NCBI GenBank assembly: GCA_038893995.1
Contig: JAWAQK010000001.1
Location: 43,776 to 107,775, forward strand
Length of the DNA: 64,000 nt
Reading direction: 5' to 3'
Source of the DNA: Candidatus Thorarchaeota archaeon
GTDB taxonomy: Archaea > Asgardarchaeota > Thorarchaeia > Thorarchaeales > Thorarchaeaceae
Positions 4,803 to 24,834 of the stretch are shown here, piece after piece (position 1 is the stretch's first letter; each line of letters starts with the position of its first letter). A program made the translations under genes and the position numbers. Below the pieces are notes generated by a model. That model saw nothing but the letters and a program-made list of their open reading frames with translations. It had not been told where the DNA came from and searched no databases.

Positions 4803-5825
4803 TCACTGAGCCTCAACAACTGCTGTGAACAGCGAACAACACTCATCAGACAAGACCACGCGGAGACCTCTCTTTCTCGCATAGTCAAATGCCTCTGGTG
4901 TGGGATATGCGATGGCACTCACCCCCGCATCTATCGCCAGACGATCAGTGAGGACACGGTGTTCTCCCAGTGGTCTTGCACAGCCGAGGATGATAGCCCG
5001 TTCGGGCATCGCGAACCTAGATGCTAGCAAGACCCGTGCTATGTCAATGGGCTCCGGCGGACGCACACCGGTCATCGGAGTCTCATCGAGGGGCATGAAT
5101 GCTACCACGACTACGGACTTGGTCTTGTGCCTCGAGATCAGTCTGATTGCGTTGCCCTCGCCCCTGAGACGGCCAAAATAAAGACCGACAACAACGTGCG
5201 GTACGATCTCAACACCATTCTCCTCCAGTAGATCCATTGATCGGTCAAGGGACTCTGGGCCCATATCAAGGTGATATATGTCATGAAGGGTCTCACGGTC
5301 GCCGATTATGTCAATCATGGCACCATCAACCCCTGCATCAGCCAGTCCCCTGGCGACGTCGGGATACACAATTCCGGTGTGTACCACCAGGTGGAGACCG
5401 AGTTCCCTCTTCACTCTCTTCATGACCTGCGTGTATCGTGATATGGGAGTGTTGCCAAGCCGCGTAGATCCCCCGCTGACCAGTATTCCCTTGCCACCTC
5501 TCCTGACGACTTCCAAGCATATCTCCCACAGCTGCTCCGGCGTCCTGGCAGGGAGCATACTCTCAAGGAGCTTGCCCCTGCAGTGCTCACAGTTGAGAGA
5601 GCACTCCGTACCTGTGACCGAAACGCTCGGGAATCTGAAGATGTTCGTGCCCGAGTAGAAGTCAGTCTCATAGTGTCGCATGCCTGGCATGTGAAATGAT
5701 ATCACGTCGGAGAACCTCTCCCGTGTCAGGCTGTAGGCCCGACTGAACAGGTTCTCAAGGACCTCGACCGGAAGGTCCAGGCACTCCTCAACGGACGGAA
5801 ATGTCTCAGTCAAACTCCGGCTCAT
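4803..5825 (-). CDS. Radical SAM protein. It is a candidate LipS-type lipoyl synthase component.
   Basis: CSLNCEHC (Cx3Cx2C) near the N-terminus and a TIM-barrel-like G-rich region. 340 aa. Sits in the same operon as lplA and a second radical-SAM gene. The archaeal two-component lipoyl synthase LipS1/LipS2 is the known precedent. Confidence 0.55.
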   Translation of the reverse strand: MSRSLTETFPSVEECLDLPVEVLENLFSRAYSLTRERFSDVISFHMPGMRHYETDFYSGTNIFRFPSVSVTGTECSLNCEHCRGKLLESMLPARTPEQLWEICLEVVRRGGKGILVSGGSTRLGNTPISRYTQVMKRVKRELGLHLVVHTGIVYPDVARGLADAGVDGAMIDIIGDRETLHDIYHLDMGPESLDRSMDLLEENGVEIVPHVVVGLYFGRLRGEGNAIRLISRHKTKSVVVVAFMPLDETPMTGVRPPEPIDIARVLLASRFAMPERAIILGCARPLGEHRVLTDRLAIDAGVSAIAYPTPEAFDYARKRGLRVVLSDECCSLFTAVVEAQ

Positions 5826-7080
5826 CCATCCTATACTCTAGCGAATAGTCCCAGATCTGGGTCCGGATCGTATTCAGGTCGTCGTCTGTTGGCGGAAAGG
5901 GCAGGTTTCTCCAATGACCTATGGAGGCCTGGTAGGGTGTGCAGTTACCCATGGGCCGGTTGCATGCATACTTATGGTTCGGACTCGAGCAGCCAGACGT
6001 CATGAAGGCCTCGCCTCTCGAGATCGTCTGGTCCAGCACCTGTGACGGTACCCCGAAATCAATCAGTTGCCCCATTCTGTTGAACTTCATCTGATCGGCC
6101 CTCGCAATGCCCTCGTTGATCATGTAGCGGGCCAGCTGGACTCTCCGATACGCGCCGAGGGGTGGCTGATGGTGTGTTTCCATGATTGACCCCTCCTCAG
6201 GAAAGAAAGAGAATAGATGAGTGTCTGCACCCCTGTCATATGCGCTCTGTATTGTCTCTATCATCTGCTGCTCGGTCTCGCCTAGCCCAACTATGAGATG
6301 GACACCCACGTTGTGTCGTCCGAATATCTCTACGGCCTCGTCCAGTGTCTTCCAATATCGCTCCCACTTGTGTGGGCCGCGAACACCGCTTCCACGTAGC
6401 CTGTCAAACAGATCAGGCGTAGCGGCATCAATGGCCACCCCAATCTTGTCCGCACCGATTTCTCTGACCCTTGCCAGCCACGCACGATCGACTATCGTAG
6501 GCGTCACCAACACTGAGATGTGGTCCATCACTTCCCGCAGGCTAGACACGACCGTGAGTGCGTCCTGACGCGCCCTGCCGGTTGTGATCATTGAAACGCA
6601 GATTCTCTCCACGTGAGGACATTTCCTGTCGGCAATTGCAGCCTTCACATCGTCAACGGAGACAATCGGCCAATCGACTCGAATGAAGGTGTTATTGACC
6701 CAGTCCGTATTCGTGACTCGAGAACCTGAGAGGCCGCAATAGGCACAACGCGCATGACACCCCTCGTCATACGTGAGCAGCAGATTGATGCAGTAGAGCT
6801 TTGCATCCCTGTAGAATCGGCCGTTCGCCTTACCCATTGTCATATAGGCGGCTAGACTCGTGCGGACAAACTCCGGTGACTCGAGGATCCGATCTTCCTG
6901 ATTGACAACATCACGTACGGACATCTTGGGGGTCACCGACAACGTAGAGAGCCACCTTTGCGCTCTTATTACAGTTTCCATAGGAATATTGCAGGGGGCA
7001 TGAATGACTGCGCCTCTGCGATTGCACCAGGGTCCAGGCTGAGTGAGCACTACTCTTAAGTCTGCAGAGACAGACCGCAT
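5806..7080 (-). CDS. Radical SAM protein. It is a candidate LipS-type lipoyl synthase component.
   Basis: CHARCAYC (Cx3Cx2C). 424 aa. Overlaps the downstream radical-SAM gene by 20 nt and sits in the lplA operon. The start is uncertain (internal Mets at METVIRAQ and MSVRDVV). Confidence 0.55.
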   Translation of the reverse strand: MRSVSADLRVVLTQPGPWCNRRGAVIHAPCNIPMETVIRAQRWLSTLSVTPKMSVRDVVNQEDRILESPEFVRTSLAAYMTMGKANGRFYRDAKLYCINLLLTYDEGCHARCAYCGLSGSRVTNTDWVNNTFIRVDWPIVSVDDVKAAIADRKCPHVERICVSMITTGRARQDALTVVSSLREVMDHISVLVTPTIVDRAWLARVREIGADKIGVAIDAATPDLFDRLRGSGVRGPHKWERYWKTLDEAVEIFGRHNVGVHLIVGLGETEQQMIETIQSAYDRGADTHLFSFFPEEGSIMETHHQPPLGAYRRVQLARYMINEGIARADQMKFNRMGQLIDFGVPSQVLDQTISRGEAFMTSGCSSPNHKYACNRPMGNCTPYQASIGHWRNLPFPPTDDDLNTIRTQIWDYSLEYRMDEPEFD

Positions 7081-8728: not shown

Positions 8729-9676
8729 ATGGTGCCTCTATCACGGATATACAGAAAGGCAATGATCACTCTACTTGAACTGGGGGTCATACTCACACCC
8801 ACTGCGTTATGGTGGATCGTCATGGATGGACTTGGACTCCCAGTCATGTCGGTCTTCCTGGAACTTGCGCTTCCTATAGCCGGACTCGGACTTGTGTTCC
8901 TCATGCTCGGAGGCATCGAGGTCGTGATGAACATCCATCAACACAGTGTCGCTGTCCGGGGCATCAAGTCCGTCCTCAGCTCCGCCAATATCTCCGGCCA
9001 GTTTACCCCGGCAATGCAACCGGCATATCTCCTTGCGGACTCAATGGACAGAGAGGTGCTCGCAGCCATCAGGGAGATTGGCTCAGACATCCTCGACATA
9101 GAGGATCATCTGGCAAGTAGCGCAGTGCTCCCTGCCGGACAGGACACCTACCGTGTCCTCGCCAAGCTGCGAATGTTGGGGCTGATCATGATATCAGAGA
9201 AATGGGGGAAGGTGTTTCTGACTTCGGCAGGGATTGATGCACTGAATACGCCTGCAATCATGTACACGACGCGGATCCCCGATCAAGTCTGGAACTATGT
9301 GTTTAGCGAGAAGGTCCATCTGTGGAATCAAGAGTGGGGCGAAGTCGTGATCTCTGCTACGAGAGCACTTGAGGCTGCAATGAAGGAGAGGGTCAGGGTC
9401 AGTGTGAGCGCACGGCCTGAGCTGGAACAGGAGATAATGGAGATGGCTGCCGGCAAGCCGGTTGAGACCTGGAGCGCAGGCAATCTGCTTGGAGCCCTGC
9501 GTAAGATAGGCGTGGTGAGATCCAGTAGCCTTGAGGACGTGTTGGCTGGCGAGATCATAAAGACGAGGAATCTGGTTCACGACAAGGGAAGAGAGTACAC
9601 GTTCGGACCGGGAGATGCGGACCGCTGCGACACATGCCTGAGTATCCTGCTGAGGTCATGGTATGGTCCCCGGTGA
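8729..9676 (+). CDS. Hypothetical protein (two N-terminal TM helices plus a soluble helical domain).
   Basis: 315-aa ORF after a 650-bp non-coding gap. The hydrophobic N-terminus is LLELGVILTPTALWWIVMDG / LALPIAGLGLVFLMLGG. No recognisable catalytic motif. Confidence 0.4.
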   Translation: MVPLSRIYRKAMITLLELGVILTPTALWWIVMDGLGLPVMSVFLELALPIAGLGLVFLMLGGIEVVMNIHQHSVAVRGIKSVLSSANISGQFTPAMQPAYLLADSMDREVLAAIREIGSDILDIEDHLASSAVLPAGQDTYRVLAKLRMLGLIMISEKWGKVFLTSAGIDALNTPAIMYTTRIPDQVWNYVFSEKVHLWNQEWGEVVISATRALEAAMKERVRVSVSARPELEQEIMEMAAGKPVETWSAGNLLGALRKIGVVRSSSLEDVLAGEIIKTRNLVHDKGREYTFGPGDADRCDTCLSILLRSWYGPR

Positions 9677-9701
9677 TTAGTCCACCTGCCAGGACTTCCA
9701 C

Positions 9702-10556
9702 CTATGACTGCTCGTCCTCAACTACCGAAGCTATTCGAAGGGACCTTACAATCTCCTTGCACCGGGTTCTCAGTGTCACCTCGGTCACTCCGGCACTGAG
9801 CGCAATGGTCGCCTGGGGAATCCAGCAGTTGAGGTGTCTTCCTGCCAAGTAGATGGCCGCAGCCGCCATACCCCACGGATCCCTTCCAGCGACAAGTCCT
9901 CGCTTCTTTGACTCCTCGACTATGTCACACGCGTGCTTCACAACTTCGGTTCTAAGGTGCAGCTCTGCAGCCACACTCCTCACAGCCGCAGTCGGGTCAG
10001 GAGGAGGCGGTCTCAGGTGTAGCGAGCGGGCAACGATCCTGAATACCCTTTTGAGACGCTCTTCTGACACTCCAGCCATGCTTGCAACTCTGCCTAATTG
10101 TACAGGCTCTCCGGACATCCTACAGGCCGCATACACGGCAGCAGATACCAGTACGTCTCTGGATCGACCTCGAAGACAAACATGGCCAAACGCATCTCTC
10201 AGTATTCCCGATGCGATGACCCTGGTCTCATCGGGGATACCAAGCTTGAATGCGAGCGAGTGAAGACTGAACAGTGAATCACTCAGAAGACGTCTGCCCC
10301 TACGCTGGGATCTCACAGACAGTCTCCTCGTGATGTCAGTCCTGGGGCTTGTCACGCGACCAGGTCCGGAGTGTGTTGCAAGTGCAGTGTCTGCATTCGT
10401 CGACGTACCTGACGTCGTAGCACGAAGGGCATCCCGACCGGAGCCAGAAACGGACTTGACACTCGGGTCGTGACGATCTGAGGGAGAGTAATAGTCGTCA
10501 AGACGCGACTGCCAGTTGTGGTCTAGGTGGTCAGACTCACCGTCTCGCACTCTCAC
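9702..10556 (-). CDS. TFB/TFIIB-like protein with two cyclin repeats but no N-terminal zinc ribbon or B-reader.
   Basis: Two TFIIB-type cyclin repeats, RDVLVSAAVYAACRMSGEPVQLGRVASMAGVSEERLKRVFRIVARSL and RDPWGMAAAAIYLAGRHLNCWIPQATIALSAGVTEVTLRTRCKEIVRSL. The N-terminal 110 aa is low-complexity (S/T/R-rich) and has no CxxC pairs. Confidence 0.6.
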   Translation of the reverse strand: MRVRDGESDHLDHNWQSRLDDYYSPSDRHDPSVKSVSGSGRDALRATTSGTSTNADTALATHSGPGRVTSPRTDITRRLSVRSQRRGRRLLSDSLFSLHSLAFKLGIPDETRVIASGILRDAFGHVCLRGRSRDVLVSAAVYAACRMSGEPVQLGRVASMAGVSEERLKRVFRIVARSLHLRPPPPDPTAAVRSVAAELHLRTEVVKHACDIVEESKKRGLVAGRDPWGMAAAAIYLAGRHLNCWIPQATIALSAGVTEVTLRTRCKEIVRSLRIASVVEDEQS

Positions 10557-10825
10557 CCATAGCCCCTTTGCTAGTCAGTCCTACCGTGGCATCGACGTCT
10601 GATATAGGTAAGGCTCACCATGAATAGTGTTTGTCGTTTTTATGAGTTGTTGCGATATCCACAAGAGATCCTACCCGGATAAGACTGTCCAGACGGATAC
10701 TTCGGTCGACTTCGTCTCGCGCACCGTTTCTAATGCTCACTGGAGAGCTGCGGCAAATCATCCTTAGCTGCACAGGACAGCGTGGTATGAACAGCAGTCG
10801 GAGCCGGATTCGGACGCCATTGCCC

Positions 10826-12970
10826 TCATCCCAGCGAGTATCTGTATCTGTCAATGAACTCTCGTTTCTTGGAGGATCCCCACGAACTCAGTGATTGGCT
10901 GTAGCCAGTGATGCGCGATATGACCTCGACGCCCACATAACCACATCTCGGGCAGGGTATCCTACTGAGTTCATCAACCGAGTTGAACTTCGTGACTCGC
11001 CAATCGATACCGCCCTGGTAGGAGCACTTTGGACAGACTAGAATGTCTTTGGTGAAAGCCCAATATGCTGCCAGAGTTTCCCGAGCGATCTTGAGGTTGA
11101 GCCTCCACAGAGCATCAGGATCAGGATCTGCCTCACCCAGGAACACGTGTGTCAGTGCGCCTCCATCCATATAGGGATGGAACATGGCCTCTTTCTTGAC
11201 GCGTTCAGTCAGAGGCAGACCCGCACCGACGTAGAGGCAAGTGCTATTCGTGTAGTAGACATCGGGGGCCTCTCCCTTCAGGTATTTCCTGATTCCTGGG
11301 TATAGCCTGTAGTCCTTCATCGCTAGTCGTCCGGCCGCGGTCTCAGCCGGCGTTCGGGTCACACCGAAATGCAGACCAGTTTCCTCCTTGAACTCGTCAG
11401 CCCTGGCCTTCAGGTGTTTCAGCACCTTTATTCCAAAGCGTGTGCCTTCCCTCTCGTGAAGAGGATATCCAGTCACTATCTCAGCCATCTCGTTAAAGCC
11501 CACCGTACCAAGCAGATACTCTCTCCTCGTGACATCAATGAGTGGCTTTCCGTTGGGCTTGGGCTGTGTGTAGAATGGCACACTGCCGCTCTCAATCAGC
11601 TTCTGCATCAGTCGCTTCTTCTCAAGAATGACGCCCTTGCAGAGCTCAATGTACTCGTCAAGCTTGGCAAAGAATCTGGCCTCGTCAGCCCGGCCGAGCC
11701 ACGCCGCACGACCGAAGTTTGGAGTGACCATCTGCGATGCTCCGAATACCATATTTCCTGTGAGGAACTCTTCCATCTCTTCCTCGCTACTTGCGGTCCA
11801 AAGATGGGAACAACAGCTACTACAACCGGCCTCAATGCTCGATCTCCAGTTGAGGTAGTTCTCAAAATAGGGTGAACCAAACTTGGCAGCCAACTCTGAT
11901 ACAAGTCGCCAAGAACCTTCGTGTTCAGGAGTCATGAACTCCTCGCGCAGGACTATGTTCGGCTTGGGGAAATTGAAGCCCTTGCCTCTGGCATCTCCTG
12001 CAATCATGACCTCCATGAATGCATCGAAGAACTCACGTGCCTCCAGGTCAAAATCGCCATAGGTGAGATCAGTGACCTTGCCTCCCGGCAGGACAGCAGG
12101 TACATCGCGCATTATCTTTGGGATTCCCGGGGTCAGATCGATTGATGAGAAGATCACCTGGCCACCACGGGCAACATATTGCTGGGTGAGTGTGAATATC
12201 AGTTGCTGAGCGGCCTGTTTGATCTCCCTAAAGGTGTGGCCTCTCATGAAGGGCGCAAGGAAAGTGTTGTAGAAGAAGAATCCCTGTCCCCCTGCGAATG
12301 AGCTCTGGGCAGCAGCTAGCCATATGGCAGAGTGATTGACGGCGACGTTCAGATGCTGAGCCGGCCCAGCAGCACTCGAATGCATGCCTCCCAGTCCATC
12401 AGGTGCGATTCCCAGAAGGAGTACCTGGCGCAGGTCCCATGTCGCACAGTAATCACGTGTGGAGAAATACTCTCTGTCCTTGATGTAGATGTCACCCCTC
12501 AGGTGTGCATCGGCCAGCTTGGGGGGAATAGTCAGATAGCAGTGTTGCTCCATGACCTGGTCGTGGACAAGTTTTGCAATCGTCTCGGGGTTGCGCATGA
12601 GATTGGCATTCGACGTGAATAGCCCAGGACTGCTTATGAGTTGGTTCAGGTCATAGATGGGTATACCGACCCGTGTATACCTGATACGCTCTGCCTCCAG
12701 CCCCATTTCCGCCAAGACACTGTTGCACATCTCACGTATCAGGGGACCAGAGAGAAACTTGATTCCGGAGGCGGCAATCCGATCCATCACCTTCAGTGCA
12801 ACTGTTCGTGCAATGGTTTCACTCATGCCGGTCTCGCGCACTAGGCTGCCCACTATACGGCTGGAGTCGAATGGTTCCATTGTGCTGCTTGTAGTACGCA
12901 CCTGGGGGAGCTTCTTCTCCCTGGACTTGACGCTCTCCAAGTCAGCACCGGTTTCTGTGATCTCGGTCAT
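10826..12970 (-). CDS. nrdD: Anaerobic (class III) ribonucleoside-triphosphate reductase with an N-terminal ATP-cone.
   Basis: 714 aa. ATP-cone region (SRIVGSLVRETGMSETIARTVALKV). C-terminal Zn site (CPKCSY...CPRCGY) and glycyl-radical motif (SRITGYSQ). Confidence 0.85.
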   Translation of the reverse strand: MTEITETGADLESVKSREKKLPQVRTTSSTMEPFDSSRIVGSLVRETGMSETIARTVALKVMDRIAASGIKFLSGPLIREMCNSVLAEMGLEAERIRYTRVGIPIYDLNQLISSPGLFTSNANLMRNPETIAKLVHDQVMEQHCYLTIPPKLADAHLRGDIYIKDREYFSTRDYCATWDLRQVLLLGIAPDGLGGMHSSAAGPAQHLNVAVNHSAIWLAAAQSSFAGGQGFFFYNTFLAPFMRGHTFREIKQAAQQLIFTLTQQYVARGGQVIFSSIDLTPGIPKIMRDVPAVLPGGKVTDLTYGDFDLEAREFFDAFMEVMIAGDARGKGFNFPKPNIVLREEFMTPEHEGSWRLVSELAAKFGSPYFENYLNWRSSIEAGCSSCCSHLWTASSEEEMEEFLTGNMVFGASQMVTPNFGRAAWLGRADEARFFAKLDEYIELCKGVILEKKRLMQKLIESGSVPFYTQPKPNGKPLIDVTRREYLLGTVGFNEMAEIVTGYPLHEREGTRFGIKVLKHLKARADEFKEETGLHFGVTRTPAETAAGRLAMKDYRLYPGIRKYLKGEAPDVYYTNSTCLYVGAGLPLTERVKKEAMFHPYMDGGALTHVFLGEADPDPDALWRLNLKIARETLAAYWAFTKDILVCPKCSYQGGIDWRVTKFNSVDELSRIPCPRCGYVGVEVISRITGYSQSLSSWGSSKKREFIDRYRYSLG

Positions 12971-13320
12971 TTTCCGTTCACCCCGACAGCCTCTCGGACT
13001 TGTTCGACTGTTGGAACCCTACCGCTCCACAAGACTGTCAGTCCCTTGCCATTCTCAACAAGAATGGTGGGCGTTGATGCAATAAAGACTTGTGCCTCTA
13101 ACAGTCTGTACTCGAAGTCAGGGTCCATCTCATCAAGATCAACTTCCTTAACAGACACACACGTTCCCTCGAGGGCCTCAGACAGTACCAGCTTTGCAGC
13201 TGGACAATTGACGCACCCCTTCTGTGTGATCAGATAGACCGTAGTCAAGTCAGCTTGTCCTCCCGACGACATCTGCAAGCACCCGGCGCCTGTATTGATC
13301 ACAGGTACTGGAGATGACAC
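12967..13320 (-). CDS. Glutaredoxin/NrdH-like redoxin.
   Basis: CVNC active site preceded by a beta-strand (TVYLITQKGCVNCP). Overlaps the nrdD start by 4 nt. An alternative start at the internal Met (13272) gives a 101-aa protein. Confidence 0.6.
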   Translation of the reverse strand: MSSPVPVINTGAGCLQMSSGGQADLTTVYLITQKGCVNCPAAKLVLSEALEGTCVSVKEVDLDEMDPDFEYRLLEAQVFIASTPTILVENGKGLTVLWSGRVPTVEQVREAVGVNGK

Positions 13321-13610: not shown

Positions 13611-14318
13611 ATGTCACGAAGGCAAGGAGAATCTCCAGAGAGGACAACAAATCATAATAGGTTCATGCAGAACGACGCCAACAGGTACGAGGCAATGCCC
13701 ATCTATCTGAGAGCAAGGACGCCCGCGGCTGGATGGCGAATGGTTGTAAGAAGAATCATGGAATCGGGAAACACTAGACTTGACGAGCGAGGACTGGAGA
13801 CCCTTTGGCTCGACAACGTGATGATCCACGTCCAGGATCCCTACACCGACAGACTGGCATCCGAGTACCCATTCAGCGAGGATGTGATCAAGAACAAGTA
13901 CGCAACTCAATTACTCACGCCTGACAGGTTGGACTTCGAGTATACGTACGGTGAACGACTCAATGCTTGGGGTGACGAGAGGATCAACCAGGTACAGTAT
14001 GTAATAAGGAAACTTCGAGAGAACAAGAATACCCGTCGCGCCGTGGCGACCACCTGGGACCCGAGGAGGGACCACAAGACTGACGAGGTCCCCTGCCTGA
14101 ACCATTTCGTGTTCATGACCAGAGAGGAGGAACTGGATGTCTCGGTAATGATCAGGTCCAACGACATGTTTGGTGCATGGCCGGCGAACGTCTATGGAGT
14201 GTCGGAGCTACTCAGAAAGATCTCAGCAGACACTGGACTCCGACCGGGAAGAGTCACGACCCTGTCAGTCAATGCTCACATATACAGACACGACTGGGAG
14301 AGAGCATCTACAATCTGA
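13611..14318 (+). CDS. thyA: Thymidylate synthase (ThyA family, short archaeal type).
   Basis: RRAVATTWDPRRD, the catalytic PC in EVPCLNHFVFM, and RSNDMFGAWPANVYGVSELL together match ThyA core motifs (Cys nucleophile, RSxD, GxPxN). Confidence 0.6.
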   Translation: MSRRQGESPERTTNHNRFMQNDANRYEAMPIYLRARTPAAGWRMVVRRIMESGNTRLDERGLETLWLDNVMIHVQDPYTDRLASEYPFSEDVIKNKYATQLLTPDRLDFEYTYGERLNAWGDERINQVQYVIRKLRENKNTRRAVATTWDPRRDHKTDEVPCLNHFVFMTREEELDVSVMIRSNDMFGAWPANVYGVSELLRKISADTGLRPGRVTTLSVNAHIYRHDWERASTI

Positions 14319-14346
14319 TTGGCAGAGCGGTTGTCTTCAATACAGG

Positions 14347-15009
14347 ATGGGCCAGATAGTGACGGAGCGTGCTGCAATGAGACATTCGAGTCGAGGACTA
14401 TCCGATCTGGATGACACTGATCGAAGCATAGTTGCAATACTTCGGTCCAATGGACGTACTAGTCTGTCTCAGATAGGTAGGCGGCTTGGCCTGTCGCACG
14501 TTGCAATCAAGAACAGGATCGACAGGCTGGTCAGGAGGGGACTCCTTCGAGTATCAGCCAACCTAGGTCTGACGAAATTGGGAATGCGTGTGATGTTTAT
14601 CCTATTGACTCTTGACGACCCCAAGTGTGCGGACCACCTGGCAGCAAAGTACTCTGGGTGTCCTCGTGCACTGATAGTAACTCAGCTGACAGGGAAGTAT
14701 CATCTCGCAATGACTATTGTTGCAGAGGACGACAAGTGCCTCGAGTCAATCAGCATGAATCACTCCGTACTGAGAGAGCCGTGTGTGAGCAATGCCGAGC
14801 TCCATAGGGGAACAGTGGTTGCGGAGTCCCGGCATCTCCCCACGGATGTCATACAGGAAACCAACAGCAACTGCAGTACAGCATGCGAGAGATCATGTGC
14901 TGAGTGCAGCCACTATCGCTCAAGGGACTGCCCCGCGTGTCCCGGCACTGTGTGGTACAGATGCAGTGGTGCCGGTCCCTGTGTCAATGGCAGCATGAGG
15001 AAGAGTTAA
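14347..15009 (+). CDS. Lrp/AsnC-family transcriptional regulator with a Cys-rich C-terminal tail.
   Basis: HTH region DDTDRSIVAILRSNGRTSLSQIGRRLGLSHVAIKNRIDRLVRRGLL followed by a RAM-like domain. The tail is CSTACERSCAECSHYRSRDCPACPG. Start chosen at the internal ATG 14347, just after the thyA stop. The ORF track starts at 14170, overlapping thyA. Confidence 0.6.
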   Translation: MGQIVTERAAMRHSSRGLSDLDDTDRSIVAILRSNGRTSLSQIGRRLGLSHVAIKNRIDRLVRRGLLRVSANLGLTKLGMRVMFILLTLDDPKCADHLAAKYSGCPRALIVTQLTGKYHLAMTIVAEDDKCLESISMNHSVLREPCVSNAELHRGTVVAESRHLPTDVIQETNSNCSTACERSCAECSHYRSRDCPACPGTVWYRCSGAGPCVNGSMRKS

Positions 15010-20079: not shown

Positions 20080-20787
20080 TCAGCTGAGTCTGAACTCGAC
20101 CCACGCGCGCTTGGTCTCAGTCCCTCTCATTCTCTCCATCCGCACGAAGAACTTGGGAGTATCGCTAGTATCATCCACCCTGAATCTCAGGACCGCATCT
20201 GCGGAGTACGCGAAGCTGGCATACGTCTTGTCGTCATGTACCCCCTCCTCGAGAATGTACATGATACTGTGAGAACCCTGAGTCAGTCGACCGCTGAGTC
20301 TTTGCACGGCCTGAGGTAGAGCTGCAGCACTGGAACTCATGATGAGTGTCGTCAGGCTGTCAACCACGACTCTTGCAACTACAAGTTTCTCCAGCGCCTC
20401 CGTGAGGACGATTCCAAGCTCTGTTATGTCGTCGACCTTTGAGAGTGAGTAGGGACTTGTGCTCTTGACGCCCATCCGGTCCGAATACCCATCTACAAAG
20501 GTGAACATACCATTTCGCTCGTGCTTCTCGATCGGCCAACCATGTCGGCTCATGTCGTTTCGTATCACTCTGGGAGATACATCTGTCGTCACAAAGACCG
20601 CAGGGAAACCCAGCACTAGCCCCTCGGCGAGATATGCCTCGGCATACGTGGTCTTTCCAGAGCCTATCGGCCCCAGTAGCAATATCGACTGTTGAGTCAG
20701 TTGGCCAAACTCGACCAGGTCTCCTAATGTGGGGCTCACCTTGACAGGGTTGCGTTCGTCGATTCGACTATCATCTCGAGCCGTCAA
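20080..20787 (-). CDS. KaiC/RadA-like single-domain RecA-superfamily ATPase.
   Basis: Walker A LLLGPIGSGKTT. Walker B region VVVDSLTTL. 235 aa. Confidence 0.7.
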   Translation of the reverse strand: MTARDDSRIDERNPVKVSPTLGDLVEFGQLTQQSILLLGPIGSGKTTYAEAYLAEGLVLGFPAVFVTTDVSPRVIRNDMSRHGWPIEKHERNGMFTFVDGYSDRMGVKSTSPYSLSKVDDITELGIVLTEALEKLVVARVVVDSLTTLIMSSSAAALPQAVQRLSGRLTQGSHSIMYILEEGVHDDKTYASFAYSADAVLRFRVDDTSDTPKFFVRMERMRGTETKRAWVEFRLS

Positions 20788-20814
20788 TCAATTCACCTCT
20801 CGGATCTAGCTGAT

Positions 20815-21558
20815 TCAGCTGCCGGGGCTTATCTCAGTAGGCCAGACCCGAATACCCTCGTCAGTGATTCTCATGGAGTGTATCCTGGAGCTGTGCTTGG
20901 ATCCTCGGAGCTTCAATACCTCGATCGAACGGGAACGCGACGTGTCGCTTATCTTCTCGTTGTAGAGCACAATGACGCCTGATGCAAGGAAGGCTTCGAT
21001 GTCAAATACGCCCAGTCCGGTGTCCTGTGCAGGTATCTCTGATGTCAGCAGCAGGGTGGCACCTGTGCCTGTTATCTTGGAGCACATCTTGAAGAACTCT
21101 TCTCTGAGAATGTCTCTGCTCCTGAACTTGTATGCAAGGATTGATAGGGTGTCTATGACTACTCTCTTGGCATTCACCTTCTTCATGTTGCTCAGGATGA
21201 TTGACACTAGTGCCGACAGGTCGAAGCTCGGATACTCCTCCACCATGACGGGAGAGGGACGTGACGGTGACAGGTCTACGATCGCCAGCATACCCTGGTT
21301 CTCTAGTTTCTCGAGGTCCATGCCAAATCTCAACATGTTGCGCTTTATGAGGTGAGGGGGCTCCTCGAGAGTGACAAGCACGCCAGGTTCTCCGTATTCG
21401 GTGGCTCCCTTATACAGGAACTGGTTTGCGAGAATGCTCTTCCCAGTACCTGCCTTTCCTGCAATGAGTATGGTGTCACCTCTGGGAAAACCTCCCTCTA
21501 TCAGTTCGTCGAGTCCCGGGATTCCGGTCTTGACTCTATCAATTTGGTAGCCGGTCAT
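20815..21558 (-). CDS. KaiC/RadA-like single-domain RecA-superfamily ATPase.
   Basis: TGIPGLDELIEGGFPRGDTILIAGKAGTGKS (Walker A) and VVIDTLSIL (Walker B). The start is either the internal Met (MTGYQIDRV, 21558) or 21588. Confidence 0.7.
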   Translation of the reverse strand: MTGYQIDRVKTGIPGLDELIEGGFPRGDTILIAGKAGTGKSILANQFLYKGATEYGEPGVLVTLEEPPHLIKRNMLRFGMDLEKLENQGMLAIVDLSPSRPSPVMVEEYPSFDLSALVSIILSNMKKVNAKRVVIDTLSILAYKFRSRDILREEFFKMCSKITGTGATLLLTSEIPAQDTGLGVFDIEAFLASGVIVLYNEKISDTSRSRSIEVLKLRGSKHSSRIHSMRITDEGIRVWPTEISPGS

Positions 21559-21910
21559 CTGGAACACCTCTACGTTTTCTGTATCCAAGGATCATCCTGA
21601 GGATTGACTCTGGTTCGGGTATGCCGGTTATGGAGGCACCTCCGATCATTATCGTCGGAGCAGCGAGTACCCCATAGTACTGTGCGACTTCTGGCTCTTG
21701 GACCACATCAATCTCTCGCAGAGTGAACATGTCAGTATCAAACTCGCCAAGTATGTCTAGCAGTACCTGTTTAGCTCGCGGACAGAAGGGGCATTCATCG
21801 TGGCTAAAGAAGAGGACCTCAACCTTCGAGGATTCCTTCCCATCTTTGGAGCACCCTTCTTCATCAGACGGAGCCAACGAGACGCACTCCCTGTCCTGTG
21901 TGACCTCCAA
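21539..21910 (-). CDS. Thioredoxin/glutaredoxin-like protein (CPFC active site).
   Basis: VLFFSHDECPFCPRAKQVL ... PTIMIGG is a thioredoxin-fold pattern. 123 aa with an acidic N-terminal extension. Same operon as Roadblock and the KaiC-like genes. Confidence 0.55.
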   Translation of the reverse strand: MEVTQDRECVSLAPSDEEGCSKDGKESSKVEVLFFSHDECPFCPRAKQVLLDILGEFDTDMFTLREIDVVQEPEVAQYYGVLAAPTIMIGGASITGIPEPESILRMILGYRKRRGVPDDRLPN

Positions 21911-21948: not shown

Positions 21949-22335
21949 CTAACGACGATATGCCATCATCTTTCGTATCTTGGTCGCCACTTTCCCGAGC
22001 GACCGAGAGTGATATCTGAGATGCCGAGGCATCACTGCGGCCAAGAGGAAGGACTGCCCACTGTCGACCAATATCTTGCGGACGACAAACTTTCCCTCCG
22101 AACAACGAATGGAGATCTCGGAGAGCTCCCCAAGCAGCAGTTCGTTCCGGAGACGCTCAACGGAGGAGGCCACATAGCCAGACATTGCAGCAACGATGTC
22201 ACGGTTTGTGGTGGGGGATGCTGAGGATGCCATGAGTAGGCCGTCATCTCGCGCAAGGATTGATGCGACATAGCCTCCGTTTCTGACCATGTCATCAAGC
22301 ATCTCGGTCAATGCCCTGTAGTCAGGTCTTTCCAT
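21949..22335 (-). CDS. Roadblock/LC7 (MglB-like) domain protein.
   Basis: 128 aa. GGYVASILARDDGLLMAS...AAMSGYVASSVERL...SEISIRCSEGKFVVRKILVDSGQSFLLAAVM matches the Roadblock/LC7 alpha-beta-alpha pattern. Confidence 0.7.
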   Translation of the reverse strand: MERPDYRALTEMLDDMVRNGGYVASILARDDGLLMASSASPTTNRDIVAAMSGYVASSVERLRNELLLGELSEISIRCSEGKFVVRKILVDSGQSFLLAAVMPRHLRYHSRSLGKVATKIRKMMAYRR

Positions 22336-22482
22336 GTGAATCGCTCCGTCATCCCTAATCGATTGCGCATTTTTCTTTTAAAGGATGAGGTCACATCCCC
22401 TGCTCCAGTATCTTGCAGTTGCACTCACAACATAGTTTTAAGTTAGGCTCCAAATGTGAGTCAGACGAGGATGTGATGTCGT

Positions 22483-23031
22483 TTGACTGCCGAATATAGA
22501 TTCAAGGTGGTCATGCTCGGTGATGGCGCGGTAGGGAAGACTGCGCTCACCAACATGTTCACGCAGGGCCACTTCATCTCCGAATACAAACGGACGATTG
22601 GGTCAGACTTTGCAGTCAAACGTGTCTCAGTACCCCAGAGGAATGCACAGGTCACTCTCCAGGTATGGGACTTGGCAGGACAACCACGATTCGAGATAGT
22701 CAGGCAATCTTTCTATCGTGGAGCAAGAGGAGGATTGCTTGTCTACGATGTCACACGACGCAGGACATTCCTGAACCTCGATCACTGGAGACAGGAAACT
22801 AAGAACAGTCTGAGTCGCGAAATACCCCTGGTCGTGGTCGCCAACAAGGTGGATCTGACAGGCGCACGCGTCGTGACGAGGGAGGAGGGAGAACAGTATG
22901 CTGCCAAGAGCGGACTCATATATGTGGAGGCAAGTGCACTCACAGGCCAGAACGTAGAGGATGCATTCGTGGAACTATGTGTCGAGATGATCGACGAGTC
23001 AAAGTCGGAAGCGAGATCTCAGACAGGTTGA
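22483..23031 (+). CDS. Rab/Ras-like small GTPase (Asgard type, no C-terminal prenylation motif).
   Basis: G1 GDGAVGKT. Switch I YKRTIGSDF (Rab-like TIGxDF). G3 WDLAGQ. G4 NKVDL. G5 EASA. 182 aa. Confidence 0.8.
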   Translation: MTAEYRFKVVMLGDGAVGKTALTNMFTQGHFISEYKRTIGSDFAVKRVSVPQRNAQVTLQVWDLAGQPRFEIVRQSFYRGARGGLLVYDVTRRRTFLNLDHWRQETKNSLSREIPLVVVANKVDLTGARVVTREEGEQYAAKSGLIYVEASALTGQNVEDAFVELCVEMIDESKSEARSQTG

Positions 23032-24179
23032 CCCTTCAAGAGGCCTAGATGCTTCTTGCACTGCCAGACGATATAGAAGATGGTCTTGTCCTGCAACACC
23101 TCACTGCCATATTGTGACATCAGGGACTCGAACCTGCGTACCAGATCAACCCTTCTCTCGCCTGCAGTATCGCTCTCGATCTCTCGCAGCAGTGCCTGGA
23201 GGGGCTCAATCATTGCAGTCCTGTCGACGATTTCCCACCGCCTTATTGCTCCGGTGGACTCACAGGTCAGGAACTCGTTCGAATCTGCCACCCATTCTAG
23301 AGAGTCCGGTTCGCCCCGTGTCATTGTCTCGGCCTGCCTAGTGAAATCACTTGTCCGCCACAGGAAGATGTTCTTGTCAGCAGACCCAGACGCAATAAGG
23401 GACCCATCGTGGTTGAATCCCACACAGCGGACCTCTTGTGTATGTCCTGTGAGTGTCTTCTCATGTCTGAGCTGCCCGTCTGAGGCGTCCCAGACCATGA
23501 CCGTCTGATCAGAAGATGCCGAGGCCACCCTGGTACCGTCCCTGGAAAAGCGCACCTGATGCAGTGCAGATCTGTGTTCTTGGAGCCACTCTATCCTCTC
23601 ACCAGTCGTCGGATCCCAGAGACCAATCATCGCATCGACACCACCGGACACTATCCGATCTCCACGAGGATCCCAGTCGCAGGACACTACGTATAGAGAA
23701 TGGCCCTTGAGCTGTCTCAGTGGCTTGGAACTGCCGATGTCCCACACCATGAGGGTCGTATCGCCACTCGATGACACTAACCTATCGCAGTCGGGAGAGA
23801 AGGCGAGCGACAATATGGGATACCGATGACCCTCGAGACGACATATCAACTCTGCACTCCTGACGTCCCAGACCTTGATAACCCTGTCAACACCACCAGA
23901 CGCTATCACATCACTCCGGGGGCTGAATGCAAGGGCTGTGCACAGGAAGTCGTCTGTGATTCGCTGGACCTCTTGGCAGTCTCTCGCATCGTACAGACGT
24001 ATTGTTCGGTCCTGATGAGCAGCAGCGAACATGCGTCCCACTCTGTTGATGGTGAAACGACGAATGATGTCGTCAGCAGTTTCCGCCTCGGGTCTTAGCA
24101 GCCTAGGACGAAGAAACAATGATGGTACGGACTCCGTCATCTTGCTCACCAGAGTGATTGTCATCGTCTCAAGCAGCAT
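23019..24179 (-). CDS. WD40 repeat (7-bladed beta-propeller) protein with a C-terminal helical tail.
   Basis: Seven GH...WD-type repeats (VWDVRS, MVWDIGS, IGLWDPTT, VMVWDASD, IFLWRTSD, IRRWEIVD). The C-terminal roughly 70 aa are non-WD. Starts 82 bp downstream of the second Rab-like gene on the same strand. Confidence 0.8.
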   Translation of the reverse strand: MLLETMTITLVSKMTESVPSLFLRPRLLRPEAETADDIIRRFTINRVGRMFAAAHQDRTIRLYDARDCQEVQRITDDFLCTALAFSPRSDVIASGGVDRVIKVWDVRSAELICRLEGHRYPILSLAFSPDCDRLVSSSGDTTLMVWDIGSSKPLRQLKGHSLYVVSCDWDPRGDRIVSGGVDAMIGLWDPTTGERIEWLQEHRSALHQVRFSRDGTRVASASSDQTVMVWDASDGQLRHEKTLTGHTQEVRCVGFNHDGSLIASGSADKNIFLWRTSDFTRQAETMTRGEPDSLEWVADSNEFLTCESTGAIRRWEIVDRTAMIEPLQALLREIESDTAGERRVDLVRRFESLMSQYGSEVLQDKTIFYIVWQCKKHLGLLKGQPV

Positions 24180-24261
24180 ATCTAAAAAGAGTTGTGAGGA
24201 TGCGATGGGCCCCTCAAGTCAGTATGGTATGGGTGGCTGGTGGTCCGAAGATGAGCATGGC

Positions 24262-24834
24262 TCAGAGAGTACTCTGGCCAATCGACTCGACCATCATGAT
24301 GATGAGCTCAATGAATGCCTTCTCCACGTTGTGTCCGGTCTTGGCAGATGTTTCAAGGAAGACCGTGCTGACCCCACTTTCTCTGAGCGCCTGTGTGAAC
24401 TTCTCACCCTCCTGCGTCGTGACTATCGATCCCTTCATGGCAGGATTGTCCTTGAACTGGTCCCGGAGATCAGTCTTGTTGCCGATGACTACAATAGGAA
24501 TGGTCTTGCCTGTGTTCGCCCAGCACTCCTCAAGCCAGTTGGGAAGATTATCAAATGACGAACGTTCCACAGTCGAGTATACAGCCAATGCTCCCTGGGC
24601 ACCCTTGTAGAAGGTTGATCGTACGTTCTTGAAGTGAGCCTGTCCAGCAAGATCCCATATCTGGATGTGCACCTCTGTGCCACTCTCAAGTGCCAGTTTT
24701 TTCACTGCGAAATCGGCGCCGATGGTGACCATGTATGAGGCCTTGAAACCTTCGCCCATGTAGGTCCGACGGAGCGAAGTCTTACCTACTGAGCCGTCGC
24801 CCATGAGAACTATCTTGAACAATGCTCTCGGCAT
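24262..24834 (-). CDS. Rab/Ras-like small GTPase.
   Basis: G1 GDGSVGKT. TIGADF. WDLAGQ. GNKTDL. ETSAKTGHNVEKAF. 190 aa. Confidence 0.8.
   Translation of the reverse strand: MPRALFKIVLMGDGSVGKTSLRRTYMGEGFKASYMVTIGADFAVKKLALESGTEVHIQIWDLAGQAHFKNVRSTFYKGAQGALAVYSTVERSSFDNLPNWLEECWANTGKTIPIVVIGNKTDLRDQFKDNPAMKGSIVTTQEGEKFTQALRESGVSTVFLETSAKTGHNVEKAFIELIIMMVESIGQSTL

Follow-up and report, generated by a model that had tools for sequence, protein, structure and literature searches.

What can a TFB-like protein do at a promoter when the half of the molecule that recruits RNA polymerase (RNAP) is missing? This question is raised by the open reading frame (ORF) at positions 9702 to 10556 (− strand) of a stretch of DNA from a Candidatus Thorarchaeota archaeon (contig JAWAQK010000001.1, positions 43,776 to 107,775), the whole of which, 64,000 nucleotides, is referred to here as the window. 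TFB, or TFIIB, is the factor that brings RNAP to promoters in archaea and eukaryotes. The ORF is complete, begins with a GTG start codon and encodes a ribbon-less TFB-like protein of 284 amino acids (the query in what follows). Its database entry, MEM4734139.1, comes from a Candidatus Thorarchaeota metagenome-assembled genome and is annotated as "hypothetical protein". We lean toward the view that the product is a TFB paralogue with a natural N-terminal truncation, one that would act as a regulator by holding promoters composed of a TBP-bound TATA box and a B recognition element (BRE) without recruiting RNAP, its N-terminal tail perhaps being tethered to PCNA.

An earlier, sequence-only reading of the locus had recognized two TFIIB cyclin repeats in a protein encoded downstream of nrdD, and this was confirmed. 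The TFIIB repeat PF00382 matched twice in Pfam (E 1.8e-27, 95.6 bits compared to a cutoff of 23.6). The first cyclin-like repeat spans residues 89–180 (positions 10017 to 10292, − strand) and contains the conserved LRGRS and VYAACR motifs; the second spans residues 187–276 (positions 9729 to 9998, − strand) and was found by Pfam, by structure match and in the AlphaFold2 (AF2) model. Residues 82–276 corresponded to profile positions 115–309 of 312 in the NCBIfam TFB model PRK00423, with a score of 149 bits that did not reach the cutoff of 384. The closest solved structures were those of the P. woesei TFB core (TFBc) in the TBP/DNA complexes 1AIS and 1D3U (E 4e-28, query residues 89–276, 37% identity). 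In the AF2 model, which was built on a 102-sequence alignment, core residues 90–275 had a predicted local distance difference test score (pLDDT) above 94, and the core superposed on 1d3u_B with a template modeling (TM) score of 0.87 and a root-mean-square deviation of 1.6 Å.

The recognition helix of the helix-turn-helix (HTH), residues 256–268 (GVTEVTLRTRCKE; positions 9753 to 9791, − strand), lies where we take the BRE-reading helix of canonical TFB/TFIIB to be from the 1D3U/1AIS structures. It is largely conserved when compared to the consensus GVTEVTIRNRYKE, with V260, T261, R263 and R265 invariant and with the replacements N264T and Y266C. In total, 36 of the 51 highly conserved core positions are kept, the BRE helix included. 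The likeness to eukaryotic cyclin or Brf-like paralogs that the sequence-only reading had proposed proved to be weak. When the AF2 model was compared with known structures, cyclins B1, T2, C and D1 gave TM scores of 0.29–0.33, below all TFIIB and Brf matches, and Brf1 and Brf2 ranked under TFB/TFIIB (TM scores of 0.55–0.62). In the search of solved structures that had returned the TFB core, Brf matches were likewise weaker (E 5.7e-9). Moreover, the protein ends 8 residues past the core and has neither the family-specific C-terminal extension of Brf1/Brf2/Rrn7 nor a ribbon.

The absence of Zn-ribbon cysteines, also noted earlier, was borne out. Pfam found no match to the PF08271 Zn ribbon in the 284-amino-acid protein, and the first cysteine is residue 127. 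A hidden Markov model (HMM) made from 105 full-length canonical TFBs aligned from residue 81 on, and residues 1–88 alone scored −3.2 bits against it, ranking 403 of 501 among shuffled sequences, which is no signal. A tblastn search with five full-length TFBs against the whole 64-kb window returned this locus only, and three-frame translation of positions 9600 to 10900 gave no ribbon. The region upstream of 10556 is non-coding, as had been stated, with stops in all three frames of the 269-nt gap. One out-of-frame peptide, GCPSCYDVRYVDECRHCTC, has a CxxC-x8-CxxC pattern; it lies at approximately 10390 to 10431 (− strand), in frame +1 relative to the ORF, and overlaps the linker codons. It was rejected as a ribbon and judged to be a chance occurrence: the spacing is wrong, the score against the TFB HMM was −1.3 bits (rank 26 of the 211 that scored when 300 shuffles were searched), and stops lie on both sides. 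An all-frame scan of the window found CxxC pairs elsewhere only in nrdD, a radical-SAM protein and a 233-amino-acid ORF 42 kb away. A fused or frameshifted ribbon, the case that the sequence-only reading had set against itself, is thus excluded by the upstream stops, the tblastn result and the character of this peptide.

The further claim that both the B-reader and the B-linker are missing was correct only for the former. The B-reader is absent, and alignments to TFB profiles begin only at residue 81–82. A basic helix at residues 68–88 (positions 10293 to 10355, − strand) remains as a degenerate remnant of the B-linker; its RLRKWQ motif is lost, and AF2 placed a helix at residues 71–105 with pLDDT values of 69–78 up to residue 90. 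The query segment VTSPRTDI resembles VTSERSEI(YRLRKWQ) of the relative P0122 (VTSERSEIYRLRKWQ). A vestigial TFB N-terminus within residues 1–88, at which MAFFT alignments had hinted, was not recovered by the HMM compared to shuffles, and the B-linker remnant alone is credible, through P0122.

The N-terminal tail and its PIP-box-like motif

The N-terminal region had been described as a low-complexity, Ser/Thr/Arg-rich segment of about 110 residues. The part without a match to TFB is shorter, approximately 80–88 residues, and the composition holds for residues 31–88 (33% S+T and 19% R+K). The region is not featureless: residues 1–30 are acidic and carry a recurrent motif at residues 16–23, QSRLDDYY (positions 10488 to 10511, − strand). 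This sequence fits the PCNA-interacting protein (PIP) box consensus Qxx[LIM]xx[FYW][FYW] as used elsewhere (PMC3820547, PMC2962436), and it is the sole strict match to that consensus in the approximately 19,400 amino acids of the window ORFs. Residues 1–67 are disordered in the AF2 model (tail pLDDT below 50) save for a short helix at residues 14–22 that covers most of the motif. The Ser/Thr/Arg/Gly-rich linker that follows, residues 24–67 (positions 10356 to 10487, − strand), is predicted to be disordered, contains no cysteines and has no likeness to the TFB ribbon or B-reader.

Three homologues carry the motif at nearly the same place. It starts at residue 16 in the query, and at residues 13, 14 and 14 in P0127 (QLTLDEYP), P0137 (QLTLDLYP) and P0138 (QLTLSEHL), respectively. 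Across these four sequences, which are few, Q and L are invariant, position 7 is Y, Y, Y and H, and position 8 is Y, P, P and L, respectively. P0127 (287 amino acids) aligns with query residues 1 to 273 (E 2e-37). Between motif and core, the four proteins have linkers of different lengths, which leave 49–84 residues ahead of the core and could not be aligned. Because it was kept in register while the linkers diverged, the motif is apparently under selection. The GTG start as annotated also gains support from homologues whose alignment begins at residue 1 and whose motifs are in register. No such motif was found near either end of the other approximately 340 TFB-family proteins fetched.

The GRDPWG clade and its gene neighborhoods

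An exhaustive phmmer search of 1.84 billion representative proteins returned 3,529 relatives, and many of the top matches were without a ribbon. Word-index protein searches returned almost only canonical TFBs and missed P0127, P0137, P0138, P0122, P0123 and P0129, although these were in the collection and even in the query alignment; negatives of such searches for divergent families are therefore to be read with care. No relative was above approximately 41% identity to the query in searches of 5.8 billion and 1.8 billion proteins. In a neighbor-joining tree of 331 core domains, the query fell into a cluster of 13, every one of them ribbon-less.

This group has a signature of its own. Residues 224–229 of the query (positions 9870 to 9887, − strand) read GRDPWG, compared to GRDPRG, GKDPAG or GRGPTG in canonical TFBs, and among the 344 sequences fetched GRDPWG occurred only in ribbon-less proteins (10 of 10, with the query and a fragment of the query counted). 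The query core scored 193 bits against an 8-sequence HMM of the clade compared to 186 bits against a 229-sequence canonical HMM and 153–165 bits against size-matched canonical HMMs. In contrast, ten canonical controls favored the canonical HMM by 50–80 bits. A DNA pattern for G[RK]DPWG.A[AG]AA.Y had one match in the GTDB representative genomes, one in JGI metagenome contigs and none in IMG/VR. The clade is judged rare because its signature matched so few collection genomes, and no broad census is possible for that reason. All 21 IMG/VR loci from an alignment-based scan encode canonical ribbon-bearing TFBs, and in INPHARED only the Sulfolobales viruses YNP1/2 matched; the viral and IMG/VR matches were all either ribbon-bearing or only 24–39% identical. 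These findings show that the query is a member of a small, rare clade of ribbon-less TFB-like proteins, marked by GRDPWG, in Thorarchaeota and other uncultured archaea.

Far from being isolated, the protein thus belongs to a clade whose genes mostly lie in DNA-modification and restriction neighborhoods: of the nine members with readable surroundings, eight adjoin genes of restriction-modification, Dnd or other phosphorothioation-like systems, and the exception is the window copy. The P0127 gene is divergent from a Type III-like methyltransferase/helicase pair that is followed by SRA-domain, BrxD-like and HEPN genes. The gene for P0137, from Thorarchaeota, follows an HsdR fragment and a YgjP-like gene at a distance of 13 bp, and that for P0189 lies within a cluster of an SNF2 helicase, a DndD-like ATPase and a Dam methyltransferase. 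The P0138 gene (locus L007) stands beside ParB-domain genes and a DndB-C-D-E-A cluster. At L007:10864-13431, next to it, a metallo-beta-lactamase-fold protein, an HTH_ParB protein and a ParB_N protein are encoded ahead of DndB-C-D-E-A, an arrangement that echoes the TFIIB-ParB pairing reported in thaumarchaeal integrative-conjugative elements (ICEs) (PMC6563490).

The genes for P0122, P0123, P0129 and P0128 are each divergent from one and the same operon with a 3′-phosphoadenosine-5′-phosphosulfate (PAPS) reductase. Together they form a conserved eight-gene module on four unrelated metagenome contigs (L008:1-7376, L009:2099-8221, L010:747-7837 and L011:1668-9215). The first part of the operon encodes a Zn-ribbon protein of approximately 290 amino acids, an AAA+ protein (TRIP13/IetA-like) and two small proteins; the second part encodes a 641-amino-acid SMC/LmuB/DndD-like ATPase, a Zn-ribbon protein of approximately 275 amino acids and the PAPS reductase, which has a 4Fe-4S domain, matches BrxP (E 3e-45) and is SspD/DndC-like. 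The operon proteins are 39–86% identical between the four loci, and the ribbon-less TFB-like gene of this module keeps the YRLRKWQ B-linker. Judged by its gene content, the module looks like an undescribed DNA-modification, defense or mobile-element system.

Proposed promoter occupancy and its alternatives

Canonical TFB contacts the RNAP dock through its ribbon and extends its B-reader and B-linker to the active site, and its core binds TBP and the BRE (PMC7289017). By analogy, the intact two-cyclin core of the query would most likely dock on TBP-bent TATA/BRE promoter DNA, and with ribbon and B-reader gone and the B-linker degenerate, the protein alone would be unable to recruit or position RNAP. 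Because the promoter would be occupied without recruitment of polymerase, the protein may act as a competitive or gene-specific regulator, in effect a natural dominant-negative TFB. The engineered Sulfolobus TFB2-deltaN is reported to bind promoters without RNAP recruitment and to be dominant negative (bioRxiv 10.64898/2026.09.06.749720). A competitive regulator of this kind, which the sequence-only reading had already put forward, would fit established TFB biology. In the sub-family with the motif, the ribbon would have been replaced by a disordered tail whose PIP-box-like tip probably tethers the protein to PCNA or to another partner. From the architecture, fold, clade membership, motif recurrence and gene neighborhoods observed here, we infer binding to TBP and DNA, failure to recruit RNAP, a regulatory role and, for the tail, binding to PCNA.

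Several observations weigh against this proposal. Fifteen of the 51 conserved core positions are changed (e.g., Y119L, E113V, N264T and Y266C), and the protein might as a result bind TBP or the BRE differently or not at all. Both aromatic positions of the motif are present in the query alone, the homologues ending in YP, YP and HL, so that the PIP reading is a pattern match; moreover, the motif is carried by four proteins only. The coding score was low, 0.125 over the full gene and 0.047 over codons 1–80 compared to 0.32 ± 0.06 for reference genes; it was weak in the linker codons 31–80 as well, yet frame 0 was still the best frame. The neighbor-joining tree is crude, and long-branch attraction may have shaped it. 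A canonical TFB in the same genome is deduced only from other Thorarchaeota. Finally, the neighbors of the window copy are nrdD, a thioredoxin-like gene, an orphan transmembrane (TM) protein and TauE, and PADLOC found nothing nearby.

A bolder extension, which we regard as rather unlikely, is that a PCNA-riding TFB core in Asgard archaea occupies TBP-bound promoters on newly replicated DNA and thereby couples replication to gene silencing. Its targets would be the restriction or DNA-modification modules in the relatives and perhaps the neighboring ribonucleotide reductase here.

The cyclin-fold core could instead have a non-transcriptional role as a DNA- or protein-binding scaffold of modification or defense machinery, brought by PCNA to replication forks so that new DNA is marked or surveyed, which would liken it to the eukaryotic clamp-tethered maintenance methyltransferases. 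Eight of the nine genes with readable surroundings lie in restriction-modification, Dnd or PAPS-reductase modules, the tail carries a PIP-like motif, and Asgard mobile elements are reported to encode both TFB and PCNA homologues (bioRxiv 10.1101/2021.07.29.453957), all of which such a scaffold would accommodate. However, the best-kept features of the protein are those that read TBP and the BRE, and the model matches the TBP/DNA-bound conformation of TFBc. In addition, no modification genes lie near the window copy and no cyclin-type partner is known in archaea, and we hold this role to be improbable.

A split TFB that still initiates transcription is quite improbable. It would require either that a separate Zn-ribbon protein, TFB3-like or of the kind encoded beside the relatives, contacts RNAP in trans, or that the tail contacts RNAP anew. 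Sulfolobus TFB3, which has a ribbon and a coiled coil and no core, activates transcription in trans (PMC7289017), and the divergent operons of L008-L011 encode two proteins with N-terminal CxxC...CxxC ribbons, of approximately 290 and 275 amino acids. In contrast, the window has no ribbon-only gene beside the ORF, the ribbon proteins next to the relatives have neither similarity to TFB nor a homologue in the window, and the B-reader, which is needed for start-site selection, is absent.

It is very doubtful that the gene is a decaying TFB duplicate, a pseudogene in the making with ribbon and reader mutated past recognition and a functionless product. The coding score of near zero in the N-terminal part and low over the whole gene, the "hypothetical" annotation, the lack of any relative above approximately 41% identity and the 15 changed positions of 51 could all be expected of such a remnant. 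Against this, the frame of 284 codons is intact, the core pLDDT exceeds 94 and the functional helix is kept; the ribbon-less layout and the N-terminal motif stand at the same position in homologues that are just 30–35% identical, which indicates selection; and members of the clade share a distinct signature and conserved gene partners.

We find it hardly credible that the ORF results from faulty annotation or assembly. On this view, the true start would lie downstream at one of the in-frame GTG codons at residues 68 and 81 (V68 or V81), leaving a bare core and accounting for the weak coding signal in codons 31–80, or a frameshift would hide a ribbon such as the out-of-frame CxxC-x8-CxxC peptide. 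However, an independently made Logan assembly matches this locus at 100% identity over 3,466 nt, and the alignment of homologues starts at residue 1, with their motifs in register. The peptide scores −1.3 bits and is closed by stops, and two compensating frameshifts would be necessary.

Were the gene indeed a natural truncated TFB paralogue, a conserved TFB without its polymerase-recruiting half would be a built-in promoter competitor, a form of regulation shown so far only with engineered truncations. The PIP-like tail, the restriction-modification, Dnd and phosphorothioation-like neighbors of the relatives and the co-occurrence of TFB and PCNA on Asgard elements together suggest that promoter occupancy, replication and DNA-modification defense are linked, a connection of which the literature searched gave no description. 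If the PCNA-riding reading is true, the protein would be a natural dominant-negative general transcription factor tied to the replication fork, and prokaryotes would offer a precedent for the cooperation of a cyclin-fold protein with PCNA; a clamp-tethered cyclin-fold protein in an Asgard host would also be relevant to the origin of cyclin-like regulators from TFB. Should the motif not bind PCNA, what is left is a further divergent TFB paralogue, of modest interest.

Genes around the window copy and comparison with known systems

The TFB-like ORF lies 269 nt downstream of nrdD, on the same strand. The nrdD gene, for an anaerobic ribonucleotide reductase, occupies positions 10826 to 12970 (− strand; Pfam NRDD, E 4e-128). 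The non-coding gap from the nrdD stop to the GTG start, positions 10557 to 10825 (− strand), contains the AT-rich TATA-like stretches CATAAAAA and CCTATATC, and presumably holds the TFB-like gene's own promoter. Ahead of nrdD, a thioredoxin-like gene at 12967 to 13320 (− strand) shares 4 nt with the nrdD start, which suggests a thioredoxin-NrdD operon. There is no NrdG-like activase adjacent to nrdD; a radical-SAM gene of 424 amino acids is found at 5806 to 7080.

On the other side, a convergent orphan gene at 8729 to 9676 (+ strand) encodes 315 amino acids with two N-terminal TM helices, a winged-helix-like middle region and an invariant KxRNLVHDK motif near the C-terminus. It had no Pfam, NCBIfam, PADLOC or PHROG match, and its AF2 model (pLDDT 48) was too poor for use. 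The sole homologue, P0346 (44% identity, locus L036), is encoded with a PLD-family nuclease-like gene on one side and, on the other, the end of an SMC/AAA_15-like ATPase gene, a setting that gives a faint, indirect hint linking the window copy to modification or defense. Synteny through this neighbor was considered and rejected: P0127 also has a convergent 315-amino-acid gene, yet its product shows no relationship to the window orphan (E 0.64).

No GC or skew anomaly that would signal a mobile element or horizontal transfer, and no notable repeats or RNA families, were found around the TFB-like gene. Its low codon score, which other small genes share, is not diagnostic of transfer. No PCNA gene was identified within the 64-kb window. 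Further away, a 279-amino-acid AsnC/MarR-type winged-HTH protein at 14170 to 15009 (+ strand) had weak PADLOC matches to Csa3/CasR/CARF-type regulators (E of approximately 1e-5), in the HTH region only. An Asgard-type cluster at 21949 to 24834 comprises a roadblock/LC7-like gene (21949 to 22335, − strand) and Rab-like small GTPase genes (22483 to 23031, + strand, and 24262 to 24834, − strand) with a 386-amino-acid gene between the GTPases, and is adjoined by a KaiC-family ATPase pair at 20080 to 21588 (− strand). The GTPase and roadblock genes agree with the thorarchaeal origin of the deposited protein.

TFB paralogues, mobile-element TFBs and truncated TFB constructs are already known. A natural conserved ribbon-less clade, a PIP-like tail and the association with restriction-modification and Dnd-type genes appear to be undescribed in the literature searched, in which no report was found of a TFB-PCNA contact, of a link between TFB and a PIP box or of TFB-like genes tied to defense islands.

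Of the known systems, the Controller (C) proteins and other dedicated regulators of restriction-modification or defense operons share with the query the character of a small protein, DNA-binding by prediction in its case, and the genes of its relatives, like theirs, adjoin restriction-modification or Dnd-type operons, frequently in divergent orientation. The folds are unrelated, however (a cyclin-like TFB core compared to an Xre-type HTH), the mechanism here would run through TBP and promoter occupancy, and the window copy does not stand by such an operon. PIP-box clients of PCNA such as FEN1, RFC-L, DNA ligase and p21 are resembled in that the query matches the consensus exactly, at the terminus of a disordered tail, which is the usual position. 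They differ in that the homologues of the query have the non-canonical last positions YP, YP and HL, and the query is a putative client.

The TFBs of mobile elements, including the Asgard elements 10H_0, 7H_42-like and WyrdV1, the thaumarchaeal ICEs, where TFB lies by ParB, and the Sulfolobales viruses YNP1/2, are likewise accessory TFB copies outside the core genome, and the P0138 gene lies by ParB as in the ICEs. The Asgard-element and ICE TFBs are likened here by description, and the window copy differs from them in showing no mobile-element sign and no GC shift. Sulfolobus TFB3 is likewise a truncated TFB paralogue; it serves as an accessory regulator and is no substitute for TFB (PMC7289017). 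The truncation is reciprocal, however: TFB3 keeps the ribbon without the cyclin core, whereas the query keeps the core without the ribbon.

Canonical TFB/TFIIB and the query have in common two cyclin-like repeats, the C-terminal HTH and a conserved BRE-reading helix. The query differs by the absence of the Zn ribbon and B-reader, by the degenerate B-linker, by the GRDPWG loop and by its new PIP-like tail. The engineered TFB truncations, TFB2-deltaN and the classical TFBc, have the same core-only domain content as the query. The query, whose similar behavior at promoters is predicted, differs from these constructs in being a natural conserved gene with a tail and a clade of its own.

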